Assembly: GCA_034520625.1 (NCBI GenBank) | Contig: JAXHNI010000008.1 | Span: forward strand, 623,574 to 687,573 | DNA: 64,000 nucleotides | Source: Gammaproteobacteria bacterium | GTDB taxonomy: Bacteria > Pseudomonadota > Gammaproteobacteria > Arenicellales > JAANXG01 | Direction of reading: 5' to 3' | Part shown: one piece after another, positions 13,486 to 46,283 of the stretch | Position numbering within the stretch: position 1 is the stretch's first letter | Layout of the letters: every line of letters begins with the position of its first letter | Notes under the pieces: model-generated | The model's input: only the letters and a program-made list of their open reading frames with translations | Database searches by the model: none | Told to the model about the DNA's origin: nothing | Made by a program: the position numbers and the translations under genes

Positions 13486-13502
13486 GTCTGGTCGCTAGCC
13501 GC

Positions 13503-13706
13503 AATCGGCGAGAGGGCTCGCCTCCTACACGAGGGGGCCGTCGATCCGTAGGAGGCCAGCCCTCTGGCCGATCAGCCATGGCTGGAGGCCGTAATCGGCG
13601 AGAGGGCTCGCCTCCTACACGCGAGGGGCCGTCGACCCGTAGGAGGCCAGCCCTCTGGCCGATGAGACGTGGCTTGAAGCCGCAATCGGCCAGAGGGCCG
13701 GCCTCC
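13503..13706. repeat. BIME-like cluster of REP type-1 elements (about 5 copies in alternating orientation)
   Basis: AATCGGCGAGAGGGCTCGCCTCCTAC occurs at 13503-13528 and 13593-13618. It is paired with GTAGGAGGCCAGCCCTCTGGCCGAT at 13548-13572 and 13639-13663. A degenerate copy lies at 13684-13706. Confidence 0.85.
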
Positions 13707-13784: not shown

Positions 13785-14759
13785 ATGAAACGGGAGAATC
13801 CCGATCCCCGGATACTGGCGCTGAACTGGAACCTGCTCCGCACCTTTATGGTGATCGTCCAGGAGGGCAGCGTCACGGCGGCGGCCGCCAGGCTGAACCG
13901 CAAGCAGCCCACCATCAGCAACGCCCTCGGTCAACTGGAGAAGCAGCTCGACAAACACCTGATCGAACGCCGGCCGGGCCGGTTCCGCGTGACCAGCGCG
14001 GGCGAGCATCTGTATCGCGAATGCCTCGAGATATACGGCAATATCGCGCGCATTCCCACCCTGATCCGGGACATCGAGGACGAGGTCCGCGGCCAGATCC
14101 GCATCAGCATGGCCAGCCATGTGGTCTGCCCGCTGTTCGACTCGGTGATGAGCGAGTTCCACGGCCTGCATCCCAACGCCACCTTCCACGTCTCCATCGC
14201 CACCAGCGGCGACGTGGTGCAGCAGGTGCTGGAAAAGACCGCCAGCTTCGGCATCTGCCTGGTGCACGAGCCCCACCCCAGGCTCACCTACCAGCAGATG
14301 TACCGTGAGTACTTCGGGTTCTTCTGCGGACCGGGCCATCCCCTTTTCGGCCGCAGGGACCTGGCCATGGACGACCTGCAGAACGAATCCCTGGTTTCCT
14401 TCAATACAGACCAGCTTTCCGGACAACTGCGCCCGGTCGCGCTGCTGCGGGTACAGCAGAATGTCGGCCGACGCATCACGGCGATCTCCCCGCACCTCGA
14501 GGAAGTGCGGCGCATGATCGTCAACGGCCTGGGCATCGGCCCCCTGCCCATTCACGTCGTGCAGCGGGACGTCGAGGACGGTGTTTTGTGGCGGCTGCCG
14601 CCCTACGAGGACCCGCCCGCCATCGACATCTACCTGGTGTGGAATCCCCGCACCACCCTGAACCGCGCGGAAAACGAATTCCTCACCACCCTGCGGAACC
14701 GGATCGAGAGCACACCGGAGGAAGAGCGAAACTTCCTGCCGGGGAATGTGTCCGAGTAG
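13785..14759 (+). CDS. LysR family transcriptional regulator
   Basis: In-frame ATG at 13785 within the artefactually long track ORF 12789..14759. The wHTH reads LNWNLLRTFMVIVQEGSVTAAAARLNRKQPTISNALGQLEKQL and is followed by a LysR substrate-binding domain. Confidence 0.9.
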   Translation: MKRENPDPRILALNWNLLRTFMVIVQEGSVTAAAARLNRKQPTISNALGQLEKQLDKHLIERRPGRFRVTSAGEHLYRECLEIYGNIARIPTLIRDIEDEVRGQIRISMASHVVCPLFDSVMSEFHGLHPNATFHVSIATSGDVVQQVLEKTASFGICLVHEPHPRLTYQQMYREYFGFFCGPGHPLFGRRDLAMDDLQNESLVSFNTDQLSGQLRPVALLRVQQNVGRRITAISPHLEEVRRMIVNGLGIGPLPIHVVQRDVEDGVLWRLPPYEDPPAIDIYLVWNPRTTLNRAENEFLTTLRNRIESTPEEERNFLPGNVSE

Positions 14760-14778
14760 GCTTCGCGCCGGCGGCGCC

Positions 14779-16035
14779 ATGCAGTACCATGGCGCGCCCT
14801 CCAACCCGACCGAGACAGACGAACTGGTGGATCAATCCCGCTCACCCGCACCCGCTGAAGCACCCCGCCAGGACCTGACCGTCGACGGGACGGAAGTGAC
14901 GCTGCTTGGCACGGCCCATGTCTCGCGGCAGAGCATCGAGGACGTCAAGCAGGCCCTCGCCGACGGCGACCACGATGCAGTCGCCGTCGAGCTGTGTGAA
15001 CCGCGCTACCGGCGCCTCACCGGCACCGACGACTGGAGCCGGACCGACCTGTTCCGGATCATACGGTCCGGCCATGGCGGTCTGGTCGCGGCACAGCTTG
15101 CGTTGTCCGCCTACCAGAAGCGGCTCGCCGATCAGCTCGGTGTGGAGCCGGGCGGGGAGATGCGGGGCGCCATCGAGGCGGCAGCGGAACGGGGACTGCC
15201 GCTCTGGTTCGTTGATCGGGACATCGGCGTTACGCTCAAACGCCTGGTACGCTCGCTCCCCTGGCATCAGCGCCTGATGCTCATCAACGGGCTGCTGGCG
15301 TCGCTGTTTACCCGCGGCAGCGTGGACGAATCCGACATCGAGAGCCTGAAACACGGCGACATACTGGAAAGCACGTTCAGCGAATTCGCAGAGCACTCGC
15401 CGACCCTCTACCGCGTGCTGTTGACCGAGCGCGACCAGTACATGGCCGCGAGTCTTCGCCAGCGCATCGCCCGTGACCGGCCGCACCGGCTGCTGGTGGT
15501 GGTCGGCGCGGGGCATCTCAAGGGCCTCGCCGGGCAACTGCGGGAAAACGCGGACCCACAGGCCACACGCAGTGCCCTGGAACAGATCCCCCCGCGCAGC
15601 GCATTCAGCCGCGCGCTTCCCTGGTTGGTGGTCGGCATCATACTCGCCGGCTTCGTCATCGGGTTCCTCCGCAGCCCCGAGCTCGGCTTGCGGTTGGTGA
15701 CCGACTGGGTTGTGATCAATGGAACTCTCACCGCCGTGGGCGCCCTCATCGCCCGCGCCCACCCGGCAACTGTGGTAACGGCATTCGTCGCCGCTCCACT
15801 CACCTCGTTGAATCCGCTCATCGGAGCGGGCATGGTCACCGCCGCAGTGGAAACCTACTTCCGCAAACCCCGGATGGTGGATTTCGAGAATCTGCGCGAC
15901 CAGGTTACCCGGCTGCGTGGCTGGTACGCCAATCGCGCCACCCGGATCCTGCTGGTGTTCGTGCTCTGCACCGTAGGTTCGGTGGCGGCGACCTATATCG
16001 CGGGATTCCGGATATTCGGGAAGCTGGTCGCCTGA
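14779..16035 (+). CDS. TraB/PrgY-family protein (membrane-anchored C-terminus)
   Basis: VTLLGTAHVSRQSIEDV carries the TraB-family GTAHVS motif. VVVGAGHLKGL is present, and the C-terminus has 4-5 TM segments. The start is taken at MQYHG (14779). Confidence 0.8.
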   Translation: MQYHGAPSNPTETDELVDQSRSPAPAEAPRQDLTVDGTEVTLLGTAHVSRQSIEDVKQALADGDHDAVAVELCEPRYRRLTGTDDWSRTDLFRIIRSGHGGLVAAQLALSAYQKRLADQLGVEPGGEMRGAIEAAAERGLPLWFVDRDIGVTLKRLVRSLPWHQRLMLINGLLASLFTRGSVDESDIESLKHGDILESTFSEFAEHSPTLYRVLLTERDQYMAASLRQRIARDRPHRLLVVVGAGHLKGLAGQLRENADPQATRSALEQIPPRSAFSRALPWLVVGIILAGFVIGFLRSPELGLRLVTDWVVINGTLTAVGALIARAHPATVVTAFVAAPLTSLNPLIGAGMVTAAVETYFRKPRMVDFENLRDQVTRLRGWYANRATRILLVFVLCTVGSVAATYIAGFRIFGKLVA

Positions 16036-16133: not shown

Positions 16134-16727
16134 TCAGTCGATTTCCGCGTGGGTGACAACGGACCCGGCTTCTCGCAAGCGCGCGGCGAGTTGCTCGATA
16201 TCCGCATCGTCCCGGATGGCAGTGACCCGGTAGACGCCTGCGCTGCCAGGACCCTGCACGATCTCGATATGCAACTCGTTGAGGAGTCGGCGTATATCCC
16301 GTTCCGTTGCGCCCGGGTCGAATCGGACCTGTATGGTGGGTGTAGCCGTCGCCTCGCCGGCGGGCTTGTAAGTATCACCGCCCCGCCGTGCATCGATCAA
16401 CAATCCGGCCTGTACAGCGATCACCAGAACCGCCGCGGCAATCGCGGGCCGCCACCACCACCCGGCAGCGACGGCCGACCCGGACTTCCGGGATTCCTCA
16501 TCAATAGTGGATTTCAGGCGGCGCAGTCCGAACTCTCCCGGTGAGCCAAAGTCCTGGGACTTCACGGTCTCGCGCACCTGTCGCAGCATCTCGACGTCGG
16601 CGGCAGCCCGTTCGTTGTCCTGCAGGTAATCGCGCACTCTATTCGCTTCCGCGCCGGTCAGGGTATCGTTGACATACCAGGGAAGCAGCTCTTCCATATC
16701 ACGATCGTCGCTGATGTCTTCTGCCAT
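16134..16727 (-). CDS. putative anti-sigma factor (single-pass membrane protein)
   Basis: Track ORF trimmed to the ATG at 16727, which forms an ATGA overlap with the ECF sigma stop. The N-terminal anti-sigma-like helix is LLPWYVNDTLTGAEANRVRDYL, with the zf-HC2 Cys/His ligands apparently absent. It has one TM segment (WWWRPAIAAAVLVIAVQAGLLI) and a roughly 100-aa periplasmic domain. Confidence 0.65.
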   Translation of the reverse strand: MAEDISDDRDMEELLPWYVNDTLTGAEANRVRDYLQDNERAAADVEMLRQVRETVKSQDFGSPGEFGLRRLKSTIDEESRKSGSAVAAGWWWRPAIAAAVLVIAVQAGLLIDARRGGDTYKPAGEATATPTIQVRFDPGATERDIRRLLNELHIEIVQGPGSAGVYRVTAIRDDADIEQLAARLREAGSVVTHAEID

Positions 16728-17299
16728 CAAATTCGTTCTCCAGTCATCCCCATGCGCTCGAGACAGCGCTTGAGAGATATCCTTGCGTGATACATCCGCG
16801 TCTTCACCGTCCCCGCTGGACAATCGACGATTTCCGCAATCTCCCCGTAGGACAATTCCTCGAAGAACGCCAGATGAACCACCTGGCGGTGCTGGTCGGT
16901 CAATCCCTTGAGACAGGTTCGCAGGGAACGGCGATGCTGGGCGGCTGCCACGACGCGTTCTCCCGAGACTGGAGATGCATCCGGCAGCCCTTCGTCAAGC
17001 TCTTCGTGGCTGCGTTTGCCGCGACGGCGCAGAACGTCCAGCACTTTGTTGTTGGCAATCCCGAGCAGCCAGGTCCGGACTTTCGACCCCCCCTTGAAAC
17101 GGCCCGCGGTGCGCCAGACCACCAGCATTGCTTCGTTGACGATTTCCGCCGCCGCATGGGGATCATCCAGGCGAAACTGCACGAAGGCGTAAACATCTTT
17201 CTCATAGGAACGATAGAACTGTTCCATTGCGGACTCATCTCCCCCGGCAATCGCCGTGAGCAGCCGCCGCGCCGATTGCTCGTTCTCCTCCCGGGGCAT
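16727..17299 (-). CDS. ECF-type RNA polymerase sigma-70 family factor
   Basis: 190 aa starting from the ATG at 17299 within track ORF 16727..17932. Region 2 is DVYAFVQFRLDDPHAAAEIVNEAMLVVWR. Region 4 is LTDQHRQVVHLAFFEELSYGEIAEIVDCPAGTVKTRMYHARISLKRCL. Confidence 0.9.
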   Translation of the reverse strand: MPREENEQSARRLLTAIAGGDESAMEQFYRSYEKDVYAFVQFRLDDPHAAAEIVNEAMLVVWRTAGRFKGGSKVRTWLLGIANNKVLDVLRRRGKRSHEELDEGLPDASPVSGERVVAAAQHRRSLRTCLKGLTDQHRQVVHLAFFEELSYGEIAEIVDCPAGTVKTRMYHARISLKRCLERMGMTGERI

Positions 17300-19032
17300 C
17301 AGCGCGCGTTGAGCCGGCGCAGAGGTGAGGATGCCACCATGATTCCATCTTCCAACGCGCTGACCCGCATGTACACATGTCCCATGCCCGCGAGATGATC
17401 CATGACCAGGCGTGAAATTTCCGCACGGGATCGGTCCGCGGGCACCACCAGTCCCGCCGTGGGATCCCCCCGAACGAGCAGCGTTGAGTTCAGTTGCTCC
17501 CGCTCTTCCGGGTCCGGCTCCTGCTGAAGCTGGGCCGGCGTAAAAAACTCGATGAGGACGTGCGTCGCCGTGGCGGGAATATCCGACCAGGACACTTCCA
17601 GGCCCGTCTCGGTCACGCTGTTGGGCGGCGGGCTCAGCACGGACACCGGAGACGGCAACGCAGCGGCGCTCACCTGGCCCGGCGACACGCCCACGTAGTA
17701 CTGGATCTGAGTCTGGTCCGAAAGCAGCTCCGGCTCCTGAACCCGGAACCGCACGATGTGCCGCCCCGTGCCGGTCGCCGTGAAGGTACGGGAAATCTGT
17801 ACCGTGTTCTGCCCCACCACGAAGTTGGAGTACAGCTGGAGCGGCCGGAAAAAAAGCTGGTTTCCGCCGCCTTCGGCGACCTCCCAGGTACCTCGCAGCA
17901 GGCCACCGGGCCCGTCGAAGCGCAGGTCGCACACAACATGCACCGGGTCTCCCTCCTGCACGATCTTTACCCGCGAGCCGTCATGGAAACGGCATTTCAT
18001 CGCCGAGATGGAGAAATCCGCCTGGCCGGGCCCGGTCAGATTCACGGGCACCCGCGCGATGAATCGGTTGCCGAAGTCATCGCGAAGTGTACGCTCGAGG
18101 ATCAGGCCACCCCCCTGCTGCCTGGCCCGGAGCAGCTGCGACGAGGACAGCTGGATGGTTTCGTTGAAAACGGCCTGGCCGGATCGAATGCCGGAGCGGG
18201 TCAGGGGCCGATTGCCCTGCCCGATCGCCGAACCCGACCGGGTCCTGACGACATAACGGTCCGACCGCAGGGTCAGGTTCGAGCCGCTGCCTACCTGTTC
18301 CACCGTACCGGTCCAGGTCACTGGCACCGGCGTCGAGGCCCCGAGAAAAGACGCACTGCTGGTGGAACTCGAGCCATTGAACGCCACCAGCCGGGACAGG
18401 TTCAGGTCGATGACGCCGGACGCCTGGGCGGACAGCCCCAGCGCAACACTGTCGGTCTTGGGGCCGGTGGCCGAAAACTGCGCCTGCCAGGTCCGCTGGT
18501 AAACCAATCCGGACACCGCCTGGGCAGCCACGCTTTCCAGGGCACCGCGAAGCCGGGCCGGAGAATAATCCACTATGGGTATCGGGACCCGGGCATCCAG
18601 GATGACCTGTGCAATGGCGTCACCAACGGCATTCGGAATCTGCACGGATTCGGGCACCGGGACGACGCCATTACAGGGGACGCCCGTGGTGCGATTGGCA
18701 TTGTTGACAGCCAGCACAGTGCCGCCCAACCGGAACTGCCCGCTCTGGGAGGTGGCCGGGGCCTGCTCGTTGTCGCAGTCCGGCTGCCAGGTCGGCGAGA
18801 ACGACGACGGCGAAAAGCTGACGCTGGGCACCGTACCGCGGAACAGGTCCCGGAAGGTGGGGCTGGGGGGCAGGGTCGCGGGATCCGGCCGGATGGTCGG
18901 GAAATCCACGCGGGCATTGATGCTCACGGAGCCCGGAGAGACATTCAGGCCCTGTATCGCCCACACGGGCCCGGCCGCCGCCAACAACAGCCCGCCCAGC
19001 AGTTTTCCAATCCTTTCAAGGTTCATGATCAT
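17299..19032 (-). CDS. 577-aa secreted hypothetical protein
   Basis: The signal peptide is MIMNLERIGKLLGGLLLAAAGPVWA and a GGGAGA RBS is present. Its stop overlaps the sigma start (ATGA). The composition is Ser/Thr/Gly/Val-rich and beta-type. I recognise no family. The antisense ORF 17494..19257 is Arg-rich junk. Confidence 0.7.
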   Translation of the reverse strand: MIMNLERIGKLLGGLLLAAAGPVWAIQGLNVSPGSVSINARVDFPTIRPDPATLPPSPTFRDLFRGTVPSVSFSPSSFSPTWQPDCDNEQAPATSQSGQFRLGGTVLAVNNANRTTGVPCNGVVPVPESVQIPNAVGDAIAQVILDARVPIPIVDYSPARLRGALESVAAQAVSGLVYQRTWQAQFSATGPKTDSVALGLSAQASGVIDLNLSRLVAFNGSSSTSSASFLGASTPVPVTWTGTVEQVGSGSNLTLRSDRYVVRTRSGSAIGQGNRPLTRSGIRSGQAVFNETIQLSSSQLLRARQQGGGLILERTLRDDFGNRFIARVPVNLTGPGQADFSISAMKCRFHDGSRVKIVQEGDPVHVVCDLRFDGPGGLLRGTWEVAEGGGNQLFFRPLQLYSNFVVGQNTVQISRTFTATGTGRHIVRFRVQEPELLSDQTQIQYYVGVSPGQVSAAALPSPVSVLSPPPNSVTETGLEVSWSDIPATATHVLIEFFTPAQLQQEPDPEEREQLNSTLLVRGDPTAGLVVPADRSRAEISRLVMDHLAGMGHVYMRVSALEDGIMVASSPLRRLNAR

Positions 19033-27883: not shown

Positions 27884-28004
27884 GTAGGAGGCGAGCCCTC
27901 TCGCCGATCAAGGCCTTGATGCAAGCGGTAATCGGCCAGGGGGCTGGCCTCCTGGTCGCATCCCCCCACAGACCTGATCGGCTACAGGGGGCTGGACTCC
28001 TACG
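27884..28004. repeat. REP type-1 cluster (3 copies)
   Basis: GTAGGAGGCGAGCCCTCTCGCCGAT at 27884-27908, AATCGGCCAGGGGGCTGGCCTCCTGG at 27930-27956, and GATCGGCTACAGGGGGCTGGACTCCTACG at 27976-28004. Confidence 0.85.
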
Positions 28005-40730: not shown

Positions 40731-41822
40731 ATGACCACCGATAATCCGGCCGATGAACTGATACGCGCCAGCGCCTGTGTGGAGATTGACGACCGGTGTG
40801 CCGAGGCCATCCGACAAGCCTGCCGCCGGCAGCGCGACTGGAGCCGGACTATTCGCGAAGCCGAGCTGCACGGCATGGCGCCCTGGCTCCACAAGCGTAT
40901 CGGGGACGCCGACGCCGGGATACCGGAGGATATCGGCAGAAAGCTTTCCGCGCTGGCATTCCGCCATGCGGATGCAATCCGGATCAGAACCCGGGCGCTG
41001 CTTGAGATTACAGAACAGCTCCGCCTGCAGGGCATCGACATGCTGGTCCTGAAAGGCGCGGCGCTCGCCCATATCGTCTACGAACGGCCGGGGCTACGGC
41101 CCATGAGTGACATAGACGTGCTGGTGAGTCCCGACCAGCTCCACCGGGCGTCGACCATCGTGTCGGAGCTCGGCTACCAGACCGCCAGCGGTCCGCGCCC
41201 ACCCGACGACCACCATCACCTGCCGACGGTCTCACGGACCATCGACCGGCTGCTGGTCAGCATAGAGATTCACCACGACGCCCTGGCGCCGGACAACATC
41301 GGGTCGATCCGCGGGGACGCACTGACCGAGCCGGCGCGCGCATTCATCGTAAACGATGCAACGCTCCATACGCTCGGGCATATCGACATGCTGCGCCACC
41401 TGTGCCGCCACGCCCTGGAGCCTCGTGAATCGATGAAGATCGGATCGGCCCTGGACATCATGCTTTACGCCTCGCACTACGCCGGGGACATCGACTGGCC
41501 CCGGCTGAAGGGGGAATTTCCCGAGGTGATCAACATGCTGCAGCTTCTGGGCCACCTGGTGCCCCGCCCCGCGGGACTGGAGCCGTACGTTCCCGCAACG
41601 GCCCCCGCCGCACCCGGGGGCGTCGGCGTGGGGATGATCCCCCTTTCCAGGCTGCGGCACCGCAAGGACCGGACCGCGAAGCTGTTCAACCCCTCGGACT
41701 GGTGGCTGCGCGGCTTCTACAATGTCCCGCCGGGGCGCTCCCTGGCCTATACCAAGGCGGTGCGCCACCCCGCGCGGATACTGTTCTGGCTCTGGCGGCG
41801 CATGGGAAAAGCAGGCCATTGA
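40731..41822 (+). CDS. nucleotidyltransferase family protein (NTP_transf_5-like, 'uncharacterised nucleotidyltransferase')
   Basis: 363 aa. IDMLVLKGAALAHIVYERPGLRPMSDIDVLVSPDQLHRASTIVSELGY is the typical core of this family, as seen in lasso-peptide and RiPP neighbourhoods. Confidence 0.75.
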   Translation: MTTDNPADELIRASACVEIDDRCAEAIRQACRRQRDWSRTIREAELHGMAPWLHKRIGDADAGIPEDIGRKLSALAFRHADAIRIRTRALLEITEQLRLQGIDMLVLKGAALAHIVYERPGLRPMSDIDVLVSPDQLHRASTIVSELGYQTASGPRPPDDHHHLPTVSRTIDRLLVSIEIHHDALAPDNIGSIRGDALTEPARAFIVNDATLHTLGHIDMLRHLCRHALEPRESMKIGSALDIMLYASHYAGDIDWPRLKGEFPEVINMLQLLGHLVPRPAGLEPYVPATAPAAPGGVGVGMIPLSRLRHRKDRTAKLFNPSDWWLRGFYNVPPGRSLAYTKAVRHPARILFWLWRRMGKAGH

Positions 41823-41883
41823 GCTTCTGTTTACAGGGATCCTGAGGTATATTTCCCACACGTTCAAAAAACAACGGCAGGCC

Positions 41884-42162
41884 ATGAACTCCGAAGCAAT
41901 CCCACACGCCAACACCGAATTCAGTCTTGAGGAAATCGACGACGAGCTGCTGCTATACCACCCGGCCAAGACCAAGGCGGTGTATCTGAACGAAACCGCT
42001 GCCCTGGTATGGCAATTGTGCGACAGCAAGCGCTCGGTCGCCGAAATCGTCTCGCTTCTCCAGGAGAACTATCCCGAATCCGAAACCATCCAGTCGGATG
42101 TTGAACAAACTCTGCAGCAGCTCGCGGACAACGGTGCCGTCGACCTGGAAAGCGGTCAATGA
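41884..42162 (+). CDS. PqqD-family (RiPP recognition element-like) protein
   Basis: 92 aa starting from the ATG at 41884. DDELLLYHPAKTKAVYLNETAALVWQLCDSKRSVAEIVSLLQENYPE is a typical PqqD/RRE sequence. Its stop overlaps the next gene (ATGA). Confidence 0.8.
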   Translation: MNSEAIPHANTEFSLEEIDDELLLYHPAKTKAVYLNETAALVWQLCDSKRSVAEIVSLLQENYPESETIQSDVEQTLQQLADNGAVDLESGQ

Positions 42163-43010
42163 GAACCCACTACGTCTCATTCGCCGACAACTCCGTTGCC
42201 ATAAAGTACGACGAAAAGACCCACCAGTCGCTGCTGGACTATCTTTTCGGCGACCTGGAAAGCACGGAGACCACCCGACCGCTGAGCCGTATGCGGATTC
42301 TTCCGGCGGACGAAGCACACAAGACCCGCCTGGAACAGGACGGCAGCAAGCTGTACTCGGGAGACTGCCGCACCACCCTGGCGAGAACCCTGGTGGAAAA
42401 GACGCTGTACGCCCTGGTGGACAAGGACGACAGCGGACTGGCGTTCCACGCTGCGGCCGTATGCTCGGGCAATACCGGCGTGATGATCCCCGGCCACAGC
42501 GGAGCCGGCAAGAGCACCCTGGCGGTGTGGCTGGCAACCCGTGGCTTCAACTACCTTACCGACGAGCTGGTGCACATACCGCTCGGCACGAGCCGGATCG
42601 AGGCGTTTACACGGCCGATCAACCTGAAGCAGAACGGCTGCCGCATGCTCGAGGAGGAATTCGACATCCGCGATGCGGAAGACCGGATTCTGACCAACAA
42701 GCGGCTCTCGATAGTACCCCACCGGCTGCTGAACCCCCGACACCAGAAGCTGACGCCGGAGATTTCCTTCATCCTGTTTCCCAGGCTGATATCCGAAGGC
42801 GAGCATCGGCTCGAACCCCTGTCGAAAGCCCAGGCGGGGTTGAAGCTGGTGGAATGCCTGGTCAACGGCCGGAACATTCCGAATCACGGCTTCGACCAGG
42901 TCAGCCGGATCGTGCGCGACGTGCCCGCCTACGTACTTCACTACACGGGTTTCCGCACACTGCCCGGTCTGCTCCGTGAAATTCTTCCGCAGGTTTCCTC
43001 CCAGGCCTGA
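42159..43010 (+). CDS. HPr kinase/phosphorylase-related protein ('HprK-related kinase A' type)
   Basis: 283 aa. LAFHAAAVCSGNTGVMIPGHSGAGKSTLAVWL contains a P-loop in the HprK C-terminal-domain context. It is translationally coupled to the PqqD gene. Confidence 0.8.
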   Translation: MRTHYVSFADNSVAIKYDEKTHQSLLDYLFGDLESTETTRPLSRMRILPADEAHKTRLEQDGSKLYSGDCRTTLARTLVEKTLYALVDKDDSGLAFHAAAVCSGNTGVMIPGHSGAGKSTLAVWLATRGFNYLTDELVHIPLGTSRIEAFTRPINLKQNGCRMLEEEFDIRDAEDRILTNKRLSIVPHRLLNPRHQKLTPEISFILFPRLISEGEHRLEPLSKAQAGLKLVECLVNGRNIPNHGFDQVSRIVRDVPAYVLHYTGFRTLPGLLREILPQVSSQA

Positions 43011-43021
43011 CCGTTCGACCA

Positions 43022-44858
43022 TTGCCCGGCCACCGGCAATCGACAACCCGGGGTTTCCTGCTTACCCGCACCGGCGATGCCGGGCGGGTGCTGCTGCACT
43101 GCGAATCGGACATACCGGCGGCGACCGCCGGCGTAGAGACCGTGTCCTGCAAAAGCGAACGCGATCTGCTATCGCGATTCATCGAGAACGTTCAGGAACT
43201 GGACCCGGACGTCCTGATCGGCTGGAACGTCATCGACTTCGACCTGGCCGTGCTCCAGGAGCGTTGCCGCGAGCTTGGCATGACGCTCGACCTGGGCCGT
43301 GGACGCGGCACGGCACGAATCATCCGCCGGGGCGAATCCAATGCGGGCGCCGTCGCCCGGATTCCCGGCCGCGTGGTGCTGGACGGGATCGAGTGCCTGC
43401 GCGCGGCATTCTGGGTTTTCGAGAGCTATTCGCTGGAATCCGTTGCCCAGGAGCTCCTCGGGCGGGGCAAGGCCATCGCCGCCTCCGATGACAAGGCCGC
43501 CGAGATCACCCGGCTGTTCAACGAGGACCCGGCGGCGCTGGCCTGCTACAACATGGAGGACTGCCGCCTGGTGCTGGATGTTTTCGCAGCCGCCAACCTC
43601 CTGGATTTCGTAGTGGAGCGTACACGACTGACCGGTCTGGCCATGGGCAGGCAGGGCGGATCCGTGGCGGCGTTCGACTACCTCTACCTCCCCCGCCTGC
43701 ATCGCCGCGGCCGGGTGGCGCCGAGCCTCACCGCAAAAGCCTACCCGGACAGCAGCCCGGGGGGCTACGTCCTGGACTCCGTTCCGGGCATCCACGAGAA
43801 CGTCGCCCTGATGGACTTCAAGAGCCTGTACCCCAGCATCATCAGGACGTTCCGGATCGATCCGCTGGGCCTCGCCCGGCCGGGCGAAGACCCTGTTCCC
43901 GGTTTCCTGGGGGCCGCATTCTCGCGCACGGACAGCATCCTGCCGTCCATCATCGAGGAGCTATGGCAGCGCCGCGACAAGGCGAAACAGGAAGGCAATC
44001 AACCCCTCGCCCAGGCCGTCAAGATCCTGATGAATTCTTTTTACGGCGTGCTCGGCACGGACGGCTGCCGCTTCTACGACCCGAAACTGGGCAGCAGCAT
44101 CACCCGCCGCGGACAGGAGATCATACAAACCTCGCGACAATGGATCGAGGAACAGGGATTCAGGGTCATCTACGGCGACACCGATTCTCTCTTCGTCCTG
44201 CTGCACGACGACGGCGTCTCCGCCGCGGACCGGGCTCACGAGCTGGTGGCGGGATTGAACGAACGATGGTCCGAAACGATACGGCGGCAATACCGCCTGC
44301 CCAGCTACCTGGAGGTGGAACTGGAGACGGTGTTTACGAAGTTCTTCATGCCTCGGATCCGCGGCCGGGAGGCCGGCAGCAAAAAACGGTACGCCGGCCT
44401 GGCCGGAAACGACGGCCAGGCTCTGGTCATCAAGGGTCTGGAGGCGGTACGCTCGGACTGGACCGACTTGGCGAGGCACTTTCAGCGGGAGCTGCTGCAG
44501 GCGGTCTTCCGGGAACAGGACGTGGAGCCCTTGATCCGCCGGTACGTCGATCTCGTACGGTCCGCCGACGGTCGCTCGCGGCTGGTTTACCGCAAGCGCC
44601 TCAGGCGACCTGTCGATGCCTACCGCAAGAACATTCCGCCCCATGTCAGGGCCGCACGCCAGCTGGACAGTCCCGGCACCGAGGTCCGGGTACTGTATGA
44701 CCACGGCGGGGCCGCAGCCGGTGGAAAAACTTTCGGCTCCCCTGGACTTCGACCACTATGTCGATCGCCAGATCAAGCCCGTCGCCGACTCCGTCCTCCC
44801 CTTCATCGGACTGGATTTCGACGCCATTATCGGCGGCCAGAGGGATTTTTTTCAATGA
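43022..44858 (+). pseudogene. polB: DNA polymerase II (family B), decayed: in-frame N-terminal deletion plus a 1-nt frameshift
   Basis: Pol II-like blocks are present: Exo II (DVLIGWNVIDFDL), Exo III (ACYNMEDCRLV), motif A (DFKSLYPSI), motif B (KILMNSFYGVLG) and motif C (YGDTDS). The N-terminus jumps from GFLLTR (E. coli residues about 5-10) to the region just before Exo II. The C-terminus continues in another frame (track ORF 44616..44858: YCMTTAGPQP...PFIGLDFDAIIGGQRDFFQ) after an extra G in the GGG run at 44688-44690. Confidence 0.75.
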
Positions 44859-44907
44859 AGTACCCTGAGCTCATTACCATGAGCACCACCACGGCGAGCC
44901 CCGCTCA

Positions 44908-45981
44908 GTGATGCGCATCGTTCTTTTGATCCCCGTCGCCGGATTGCTGCTGCTCGCGGCGGTCTATCTGCTCACGCCGCGGGCCATACTCGACATGGAA
45001 CCGCCGGAGCGGGGATACACCGACGTCCATGCCCATATCGGGGGCATCGGCGCCGGAGGCAGCGGCGTATACGTTCATCCGGATCTCGCCGACAGCTTCA
45101 AGTTTGGTTTCTATCTTCGCTGGCTGGGCGTGAGCCGGGAGGAGCTCGACCGTCACGGCGACGCGCGGGTCGCCGAACGGTTGAACCGGGCGATCGTGGA
45201 ATCCAGGTACGTCGCACGCGCCGTCATCCCGGCGCTGGACGGCGTCGTACGCGAAGACGCCATCGACCGCGCCGCGACCCAGTTGTACATTCCGAATGAG
45301 TTCACCGCCCGGATGGCCGAACGCTACGGCAACCTGGAGTTCGGTGCCAGCGTCCACCCCGACCGCTCGGACTGGCGGCAGCGTCTGTTGGACGCCCAAC
45401 GCAGGGGGGCGGTGCTGGTAAGGTGGTTCCCTGCGGTGATGGACATCGACCCGTCCGACAGGCGCCATATTGACTATTATCGAACACTGGTTGAACTGGA
45501 TCTTCCCCTGCTGGTTCATGTCGGCCGGCAGAAGCTCTTCAGCGAAATCCGGAGCGCACTCGGCGATCCGGAAAAGCTCACTCTGCCCCTGGAGCGGGGC
45601 GTCACAGTCATCGCCACCCATCTTGGCACCACGGGCAGCTACGAAGGCGAAGCCAGCCACGAAAGGCTGCTGGGCATGCTTGCTGACCATCCGCGCCTGT
45701 ACACGGACATCGCCGGCCTGACGCAGCTCAACAGAGTCGGGTACCTCGTCAATGCCCTGGAGCGGCCCGTCGTCGCAGACCGGATGCTGTACGGATCGGG
45801 CTGGCCCCTCCAGTTCTTTCCGCTGGTGTCACCGTTGTATCACTGGCCCGACGTCGACCTGGGCACCGTCAAGACCATCCAGTTGATGGAAAACAGGCTG
45901 GACCGGGATATCGCACTGAAAAAAGCCCTCGGTGTACAGCACGGGGTATTCGAGCGTTCCGGCCGGCTGCTGACGCGCTGA
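44908..45981 (+). CDS. amidohydrolase-family metal-dependent hydrolase (membrane-anchored or secreted)
   Basis: 357 aa with an N-terminal hydrophobic segment, the DVHAHIGG HxH metal motif and a TIM-barrel amidohydrolase_2-like layout (LLVHVG, ATHLG, MLYGSGWP). Confidence 0.65.
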   Translation: MMRIVLLIPVAGLLLLAAVYLLTPRAILDMEPPERGYTDVHAHIGGIGAGGSGVYVHPDLADSFKFGFYLRWLGVSREELDRHGDARVAERLNRAIVESRYVARAVIPALDGVVREDAIDRAATQLYIPNEFTARMAERYGNLEFGASVHPDRSDWRQRLLDAQRRGAVLVRWFPAVMDIDPSDRRHIDYYRTLVELDLPLLVHVGRQKLFSEIRSALGDPEKLTLPLERGVTVIATHLGTTGSYEGEASHERLLGMLADHPRLYTDIAGLTQLNRVGYLVNALERPVVADRMLYGSGWPLQFFPLVSPLYHWPDVDLGTVKTIQLMENRLDRDIALKKALGVQHGVFERSGRLLTR

Positions 45982-46143
45982 TCCCTCCGTTCCCCCGGAA
46001 CCGGCGGTCTATTGACACCGGTAACGGCGCGCATATCTAATAGTTGATCCGATATACGACCGATGTCCGCGCGGACCCCTGATTTACCCAGCGACAAATA
46101 TTGACCTATTCAGCCGGCACTGTGCGGCGGACAAACGAAGCCC

Positions 46144-46212
46144 GTAGGAGGTCGGCCCCTGCCGATGGGCCATTGCCCGAAGCCTCAATCGGCGAGGGGG
46201 CTCGCCTCCTGC
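46144..46212. repeat. REP type-1 pair (convergent orientation)
   Basis: GTAGGAGGTCGGCCCCTGCCGAT at 46144-46166 and AATCGGCGAGGGGGCTCGCCTCCTGC at 46187-46212. Confidence 0.8.
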
Positions 46213-46283
46213 TCTTTTGGCGACCCGCGCGCATGCGTTTCCCCTTCTCCGTCTGAATCAACGGCCACCAGTATTTCCGACCT

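Follow-up and report, generated by a model that had tools for sequence, protein, structure and literature searches.

The polB gene of this Arenicellales-like bacterium, a chromosomal orthologue of DNA polymerase II (Pol II), has quite probably been caught just after its inactivation by two independent lesions, and its product is most likely non-functional. The gene lies on the plus strand of a 64,000-nucleotide stretch of DNA (hereafter the window, with a G+C content of 64%), where the open reading frame (ORF) as written (43022-44911) begins with a TTG start and encodes 629 amino acids. Set against six intact relatives, it is disrupted as pseudogenes are, by a deletion of 163 codons near its 5' end and a +1 frameshift near its 3' end, and the best label for it would be that of a very recent polB pseudogene or disrupted allele rather than a novel type of polymerase. 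The order Arenicellales was confirmed in the taxonomy for this clade, and the host is here called Arenicellales-like.

Identity of the gene and its public record

On sequence criteria, the gene is placed by descent in the PolII-like clade of B-family polymerases. Residues 45-552 of the window protein matched residues 200-713 of Escherichia coli Pol II (E value of 1e-159; phmmer against PDB), the retained region being about 48% identical to the E. coli enzyme, and homology to Pol II ended at residue ~552-556 (phmmer and NCBIfam). The protein scored 746 bits against the NCBIfam Pol II equivalog NF004421, for which the cut-off is 570, and covered positions 196-723 of the 795 profile positions, compared with positions 4-794 for its closest relative. 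Pfam recognized DNA_pol_B and only the C-terminal half of DNA_pol_B_exo1, and found no match to DNApolII_N (PF21474) in the window protein, a domain that is present in full-length relatives. These searches bear out the earlier sequence-only reading of this DNA, which had named the gene polB (DNA polymerase II).

The Pol II core, comprising the rest of the exonuclease domain, the palm, the fingers, and most of the thumb, occupies positions 43073-44687 and was aligned to E. coli Pol II residues 200-713. Within it, the alignment of Pol II proteins (alignment A1) located Exo II (GWNVIDFD; 43220-43243, residues 67-74), Exo III (YNMEDC; 43547-43564, residues 176-181), motif A (DFKSLYPS; 43814-43837), motif B (KILMNSFYG; 44021-44047), and motif C (YGDTDS; 44171-44188), all on the plus strand. 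These five motifs and KKRY are all intact, in agreement with the sequence-only reading, which had described motifs A, B, and C and Exo II and III as such; moreover, motifs A, B, and C and KKRY are invariant in the alignment. The GWN within Exo II is a signature of the PolII-like clade (PMC7544198).

The product of the ORF is identical to a protein in nr, MDZ7841577.1 ("MAG: DNA polymerase II [Gammaproteobacteria bacterium]"), which is encoded on a 733-kb contig and is the single member of its protein cluster. As reference we used the closest relative, P0002, an intact protein of 774 amino acids that is encoded on a 4.6-kb Logan contig (L002, from SRR34348092); the window polB and that of L002 are 92% identical in amino acids and 88% identical in nucleotides. 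A scan of genome contigs returned, among the matches listed, only relatives of at most 58% identity, and scans of the window for Rfam families and tRNAs gave no matches.

An in-frame deletion of the N-terminal and Exo I region

Comparison with L002 placed the 5' lesion entirely within polB. Two blastn blocks, L002 1-534 with window 42537-43070 (94.8% identity) and L002 1025-3986 with window 43072-46080 (88.4% identity), are separated by 490 nt in L002 and by 1 nt in the window, so that 489 nt net (163 codons) are missing and the frame is preserved. The retained start of the gene (43022-43069, plus strand) comprises the TTG and first 16 codons (MPGHRQSTTRGFLLTR), whose amino acids are identical to residues 1-16 of P0002, and the junction itself falls at 43070-43072, in a hybrid codon 17 (ACC), as seen by blastn and manual alignment against L002, with the breakpoints placed to about 2 nt by comparison with three further relatives (L003-L005). 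Across the junction, the window protein reads MPGHRQSTTRGFLLTR-T-GDAGRVLLHCES, where P0002 reads MPGHRQSTTRGFLLTR-NWRD...(163 aa)...YLC-GDTGRVLLHCES. The missing stretch corresponds to P0002 residues 17/18-179/180, or approximately H11-E170 of E. coli Pol II (alignment A1). The sequence-only reading had come close to this result by comparison with E. coli Pol II, having estimated a loss of about 160 codons, including the N-terminal region and the Exo I DIET motif, with a junction at about 43070-43085.

The missing stretch contains the DNApolII_N domain and also Exo I (DxE; SFDIET at P0002 161-166), which is thus absent from the window protein. The E. coli equivalents of the Exo I carboxylates are presumably D155 and E157, a numbering consistent with the alignment. 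An AlphaFold model of full-length P0002 (pLDDT of 88; TM-score of 0.93 to E. coli Pol II 3K5L) indicated that the deletion takes out every secondary-structure element of the N-terminal domain, as well as strands 159-166 (carrying Exo I D163 and E165) and 173-180, which are the first two strands of the exonuclease domain. The deleted part was not found elsewhere, as tblastn with P0002 residues 18-180 gave no match to it in the whole window.

No direct repeat was found in L002 at the two breakpoints, about 490 nt apart, and microhomology between them, judged by comparison with four relatives, was at most 1-4 nt and imperfect. Repeat-mediated deletion, or collapse of a repeat by the assembler, was rejected on this ground, and illegitimate recombination or slippage is the probable origin of the 489-bp internal deletion. 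The lack of an ATG, which had been read as a further sign of decay, turned out to be no such sign, because the intact sister gene in L002 starts at the identical TTG and shares the same first 16 codons.

A +1 frameshift and the displaced C-terminal tail

The second lesion is one extra G, relative to the relatives, in a GGG run at 44688-44690 (plus strand), which shifts the reading frame by +1, as seen in the alignment to L002 and in a change of frame in tblastn. At this site, the window reads GAGGTCCGGGTACTG and L002 reads GAGGTCC-GGTACTG, with the extra G located 168 nt before the native stop. The final 55 codons of Pol II, together with its native stop, therefore lie out of frame, at 44691-44858 (alignment A1; within the ORF at 44616-44858), and the frame as written continues instead over 44691-44911, adding 73 unrelated residues after residue 556 and ending at a stop codon within the beginning of the following gene. 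Removal of one G yields a protein of 611 amino acids in which the restored frame reads ...GTEVRYCMTTAGPQPVEK...GGQRDFFQ*; this repaired protein ends in ...GTEVRYCMTTAGPQPVEKLSAPLDFDHYVDRQIKPVADSVLPFIGLDFDAIIGGQRDFFQ* and aligns collinearly with every relative and with the C-terminus of E. coli Pol II. Both the switch of frame after the GGG run, mended by removing one G, and the likeness of the mended end to the E. coli C-terminus with its QLGLF-type tail had been recognized in the sequence-only reading, and both held up here.

The C-terminal QRDFF(Q) tail, which is encoded within 44691-44858 and aligns with QLGLF of E. coli, is out of frame in the gene as written. In E. coli Pol II, these last five residues (QLGLF, 779-783) are the motif that binds the beta-clamp groove (PMC5731819). 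As encoded, the window gene thus lacks three defining features of the Pol II family, namely an N-terminal domain, the Exo I motif, and a clamp tail read in frame, and the alignment bears out the expectation that the product as written is without Exo I and the clamp-binding tail.

Pol II of E. coli is an accessory, non-essential repair and translesion polymerase. The internal deletion costs the window protein its N-terminal domain, along with the Exo I carboxylates and beta-strands one and two of the exonuclease fold, and the one-G insertion swaps its last 55 residues, which make up the end of the thumb and the tail that binds the beta clamp, for the unrelated ones. Judged from structure, a product that could not proofread, had an incomplete exonuclease fold, and was not tethered to the clamp would probably be unstable or inactive. 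As judged from E. coli, where the polymerase is dispensable, such a loss may well be tolerated, because Pol II serves as an accessory repair and translesion polymerase.

Selection on the retained sequence and the age of the damage

Codon alignments with L002-L005, made after repair of the frameshift, were used to compare polB with three flanking genes. Between the window and L002, polB showed a dS of 0.29, a dN of 0.035, and a dN/dS of 0.12, and the dN/dS of the flanking genes ranged from 0.06 to 0.24. When changes were polarised with three outgroups, 12 amino-acid changes were assigned to the window branch and 11 to that of L002, with 40 and 28 synonymous changes, respectively. Among 120 homologues, the window protein carried no private substitution at a fully conserved column and two private substitutions at columns conserved to at least 97%, where the median sequence carried one; of these two, one is common to P0002 and the other is H365Q. 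Even the 55 codons now out of frame, when compared with L002 in the Pol II frame, differed at 15 synonymous and only 2 non-synonymous codons. Neither dN/dS nor the changes by branch nor the conserved columns gave any sign of relaxed selection on the retained polB.

We infer that polB was normal and under selection for essentially all of the time since the split from the sister lineage, and that both lesions would be either very young or not real. Because both the retained sequence and the out-of-frame tail are free of relaxed selection, the lesions should be very recent or the frameshift an artefact; for a pseudogene, an absence of relaxation is compatible only with very recent inactivation. 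A rough calculation from dS suggests that neutral evolution over 1-3% of the branch could be enough for one indel without detectable extra substitutions. The gene had earlier been described as "decayed", and while the disruption by deletion and frameshift stands, "decay" overstated the case, as the retained sequence is still constrained.

The upstream cassette

Upstream of polB lies a cassette of NTP_transf_5, PqqD, and HprK-like genes, the last of which, an HprK-related-kinase-like gene (42159-43010, plus strand), is not part of the damage and is separated by 11 nt from the start codon of polB; its product matched Pfam Hpr_kinase_C weakly and NCBIfam TIGR04352 below the cut-off. The order ACT/GcvR-like, nitroreductase (minus strand), NTP_transf_5, PqqD, HprK-like, polB, Amidohydro_2, and MBL-fold was found with a full-length polB in four contigs, with PolB identities to the window of 78% (L004), 76% (L005), 72% (L086, from JGI), and 68% (L087, an Arenicellales MAG, GCA_049583715.1), and on the shorter contigs L002 and L003 the HprK-like gene likewise adjoins an intact polB on its upstream side. 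The HprK-like gene therefore stands immediately 5' of a full-length polB in all six relatives (68-92% identity, with L003-L005, L086, and L087 at 68-80%), and the context of polB differs only at 58% identity. In L002, whose polB is intact, both the HprK-like gene and the 11-nt spacer are present, in a flank 94.8% identical to the window. In L004 and L086, the stop codon of the HprK-like gene overlaps the start codon of polB. A search for a LexA box (CTGT-N8-ACAG) gave only matches with 1 mismatch, at chance level, and none at the promoter position.

The sequence-only reading had suggested that acquisition of the cassette truncated the 5' end of polB, and had proposed a comparison of the gcvR-polB locus in relatives without the cassette. 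Proximity, the 11 nt between the end of the cassette and the start of polB, is what speaks for this causal model, but the relatives examined point the other way, with the cassette upstream of intact polB in relatives and hence ancestral. Moreover, the deletion lies wholly inside polB, beginning 16 codons downstream of the start, and the spacer and start region are the same as in the intact sister. Insertion of the cassette as the cause was thus ruled out by synteny in the six relatives, and we give this model next to no weight. Because the cassette precedes intact polB in relatives, it is an old, ancestral neighbour of the gene in this Arenicellales-like clade that took no part in the damage.

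Real loss, artefact, or a functional short polymerase

The deletion is very likely real in the assembled population, and the extra G is reasonably likely to be so. The competing view of an artefact, in which polB of this genome is intact or nearly so and the extra G arose as a homopolymer or consensus error, perhaps where a CCGG site is methylated, is unlikely. In its favour, the source is a MAG in which a consensus error could occur within a GGG run; the retained gene appears to be under full constraint, its out-of-frame tail included, as would be expected equally of artefactual lesions; and searches of nr and JGI metagenomes did not confirm either lesion in a second assembly. Specifically, no second assembly with either lesion was found in the protein cluster or in JGI metagenome contigs, and exact-pattern scans of those contigs for the junction and for the frameshift site (with both GG and GGG) gave 0 matches. 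The 489-nt gap might likewise have arisen in the MAG through misassembly or a mixture of strains, but its breakpoints are without any repeat that could collapse in assembly, and a repeat-free deletion would be an unusual assembler artefact. The rest of the window was examined for comparable damage: about 53 ORFs, selected by length and third-position G+C, span about 95% of the 64 kb, and the gaps left after the first ORF pass contain ordinary genes. Ten neighbouring same-strand ORFs, which might have been split pairs, proved by Pfam to be separate complete genes, and with the remaining ORFs judged by length and third-position G+C only, polB is the sole visibly broken gene. Because the other ~52 ORFs in 64 kb look intact, the rate of consensus indel errors is low, and a lone random indel would fall in polB in only ~3% of cases (~1.8 kb of ~60 kb coding). 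Two lesions in one gene fit a real loss better than random error. Taken separately, it is possible, though rather unlikely, that the frameshift alone is an error, and very unlikely that the deletion is an artefact as well.

The gene might still produce a working short Pol II, that is, an in-frame deletion allele expressed from the TTG that would be exonuclease-deficient, possibly clamp-independent, and error-prone, with a mutator or translesion role. The deletion is indeed in frame with the start and first 16 codons kept, motifs A, B, and C, KKRY, Exo II, and Exo III are intact, and purifying selection is still visible. Nevertheless, an in-frame result has a one-in-three chance anyway, the loss of two core exonuclease strands and the N-terminal domain should destabilise the protein, the frameshift removes the clamp motif, and the selection signal predates the deletion, as the sister gene is intact. 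The architecture itself was found in none of the 120 homologues: orthologues sharing the short N-terminus, which the sequence-only reading had named as the observation that would point to a natural short variant, were looked for and gave 0 of 120, and an internal gap of at least 15 amino acids occurred in no homologue but the window protein. A natural short Pol II family was rejected, since the shorter homologues are truncated at the N-terminus (from P0002 residues 25-136 onwards) and not internally deleted. A functional short Pol II would thus seem very improbable, and expression of the deletion allele as an error-prone mutator or translesion Pol II, with the frameshift an error or tolerated, would be similarly improbable. 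Programmed +1 ribosomal frameshifting at CGG-G could in principle restore the C-terminus, and the downstream frame is perfectly conserved, but a recent origin of the frameshift accounts for that conservation, and the extra G occurs in none of the relatives, all of which read through with GG. The sequence GUC CGG GUA is not known as a slippery or hungry-codon site, and programmed frameshifting, whose site is not conserved in orthologues, was rejected as having hardly any likelihood.

Meaning for annotation and for the lineage

The public record MDZ7841577.1 names the truncated, frameshifted product of 629 amino acids "DNA polymerase II" and does not flag it as a pseudogene. Real lesions would mean that an accessory polymerase for repair and translesion synthesis has only just been lost from this lineage, a common and tolerated event, and the locus would then provide a snapshot of a pseudogene before drift accumulates. 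Disruption of a gene for a non-essential repair polymerase is an ordinary kind of event. A useful correction concerns the HprK-like/PqqD/nucleotidyltransferase cassette, which is an ancestral conserved neighbour of polB and not a recent damaging insertion. If, on the other hand, the short Pol II were expressed and active, a B-family polymerase could work without its N-terminal domain and with a partial exonuclease fold.

Comparison with known polymerases

The window gene resembles E. coli Pol II (PolB/DinA; PDB 3K57 and 1Q8I) in its GWN-type Exo II, Exo III, motifs A, B, and C, and KKRY, and, after removal of one G, in a collinear C-terminus whose Qxx[LF]F-type tail aligns with QLGLF. It differs from the E. 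coli protein in lacking the equivalent of residues ~11-170 (the N-terminal domain and Exo I) and, as written, the last 55 residues, and from the E. coli gene in its position downstream of an HprK-like cassette and in having no LexA box above chance. With the L002 gene and its product P0002, it shares the TTG start, the flanking genes, and the C-terminal tail. The Arenicellales-like orthologues as a whole (P0002-P0019) are 774-794 amino acids long and possess DNApolII_N, Exo I, and a tail read in frame; the window gene is set apart from them by the 489-nt deletion and the extra G.

A working Exo I motif is absent not only from the window protein but also from B-family polymerases that are naturally exonuclease-inactive or split, namely archaeal PolB2, the bacterial G2 group, and Pol alpha/zeta (PMC7544198). 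Those lineages, however, are old and conserved and have retained the N-terminal domain together with an exonuclease fold that is complete, though inactive, whereas the loss seen in the window is a private and very recent deletion in an otherwise typical Pol II.

Genes co-oriented with polB

Immediately upstream of polB and on the same strand lie genes for an NTP_transf_5 protein, a PqqD-like protein and an HprK-related-kinase-A-like protein (40731-43010), and the same set was found in four contigs of relatives (L004, L005, L086, and L087). In all of the Arenicellales-like relatives (68-92% PolB identity), polB was immediately preceded by this co-oriented three-gene set, and in L004 and L086 the polB start and the stop of the upstream set share 4 nt. 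This peptide-chaperone/kinase/nucleotidyltransferase trio and Pol II may represent a conserved operon. The set matched NCBIfam TIGR04352 and TIGR04353 (“HPr-rel-A system”) weakly, below cut-off, and neither a lasso-type cyclase nor a precursor peptide was seen near it.

A putative small repeat in the intergenic spacers

In the spacer that separates the Amidohydro_2 gene from its MBL-fold neighbour there is a ~140-nt insertion (46081-46219), which was missing in six relatives and is strongly self-pairing (-54 kcal/mol; RNAfold). Its 3′ part is the palindrome GGCGAGGGGGCTCGCC, further copies of which were detected between other genes of the window (13501-13528, about 13593-13616, and 27886-27908). 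The insertion looks like a lineage-specific small repeat of the REP or MITE type. Elsewhere in the window, translations of 16134-17350 (-) and 13850-16035 (+) point to a putative ECF-type sigma factor gene beside a putative anti-sigma gene, together with a putative LysR-type regulator and a TraB/PrgY-like gene.

Substitution, annotation, and 3′ boundary of polB

Beyond its internal deletion and frameshift, the window polB has a single private substitution at a near-invariant site, namely H-to-Q at ORF residue 365 (44114-44116), a position of the SSITRRGH stretch downstream of motif B at which 99% of the other homologues (n=119) have H. Despite the frameshift and the internal deletion, the 629-aa product (nr MDZ7841577.1; 43022-44911) is named just “DNA polymerase II” in the public record, which carries neither a pseudogene flag nor a frameshift flag. 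The native polB stop is separated from the Amidohydro_2 gene start by ~50 nt (44859-44910), and the frameshifted ORF crosses this spacer and ends within the GTGATG start region of the Amidohydro_2 gene. The corresponding spacer is 48 nt in L003 and 154 nt in L004, two further relatives with full-length polB, whereas in the sister contig with intact polB (L002) the two genes overlap.
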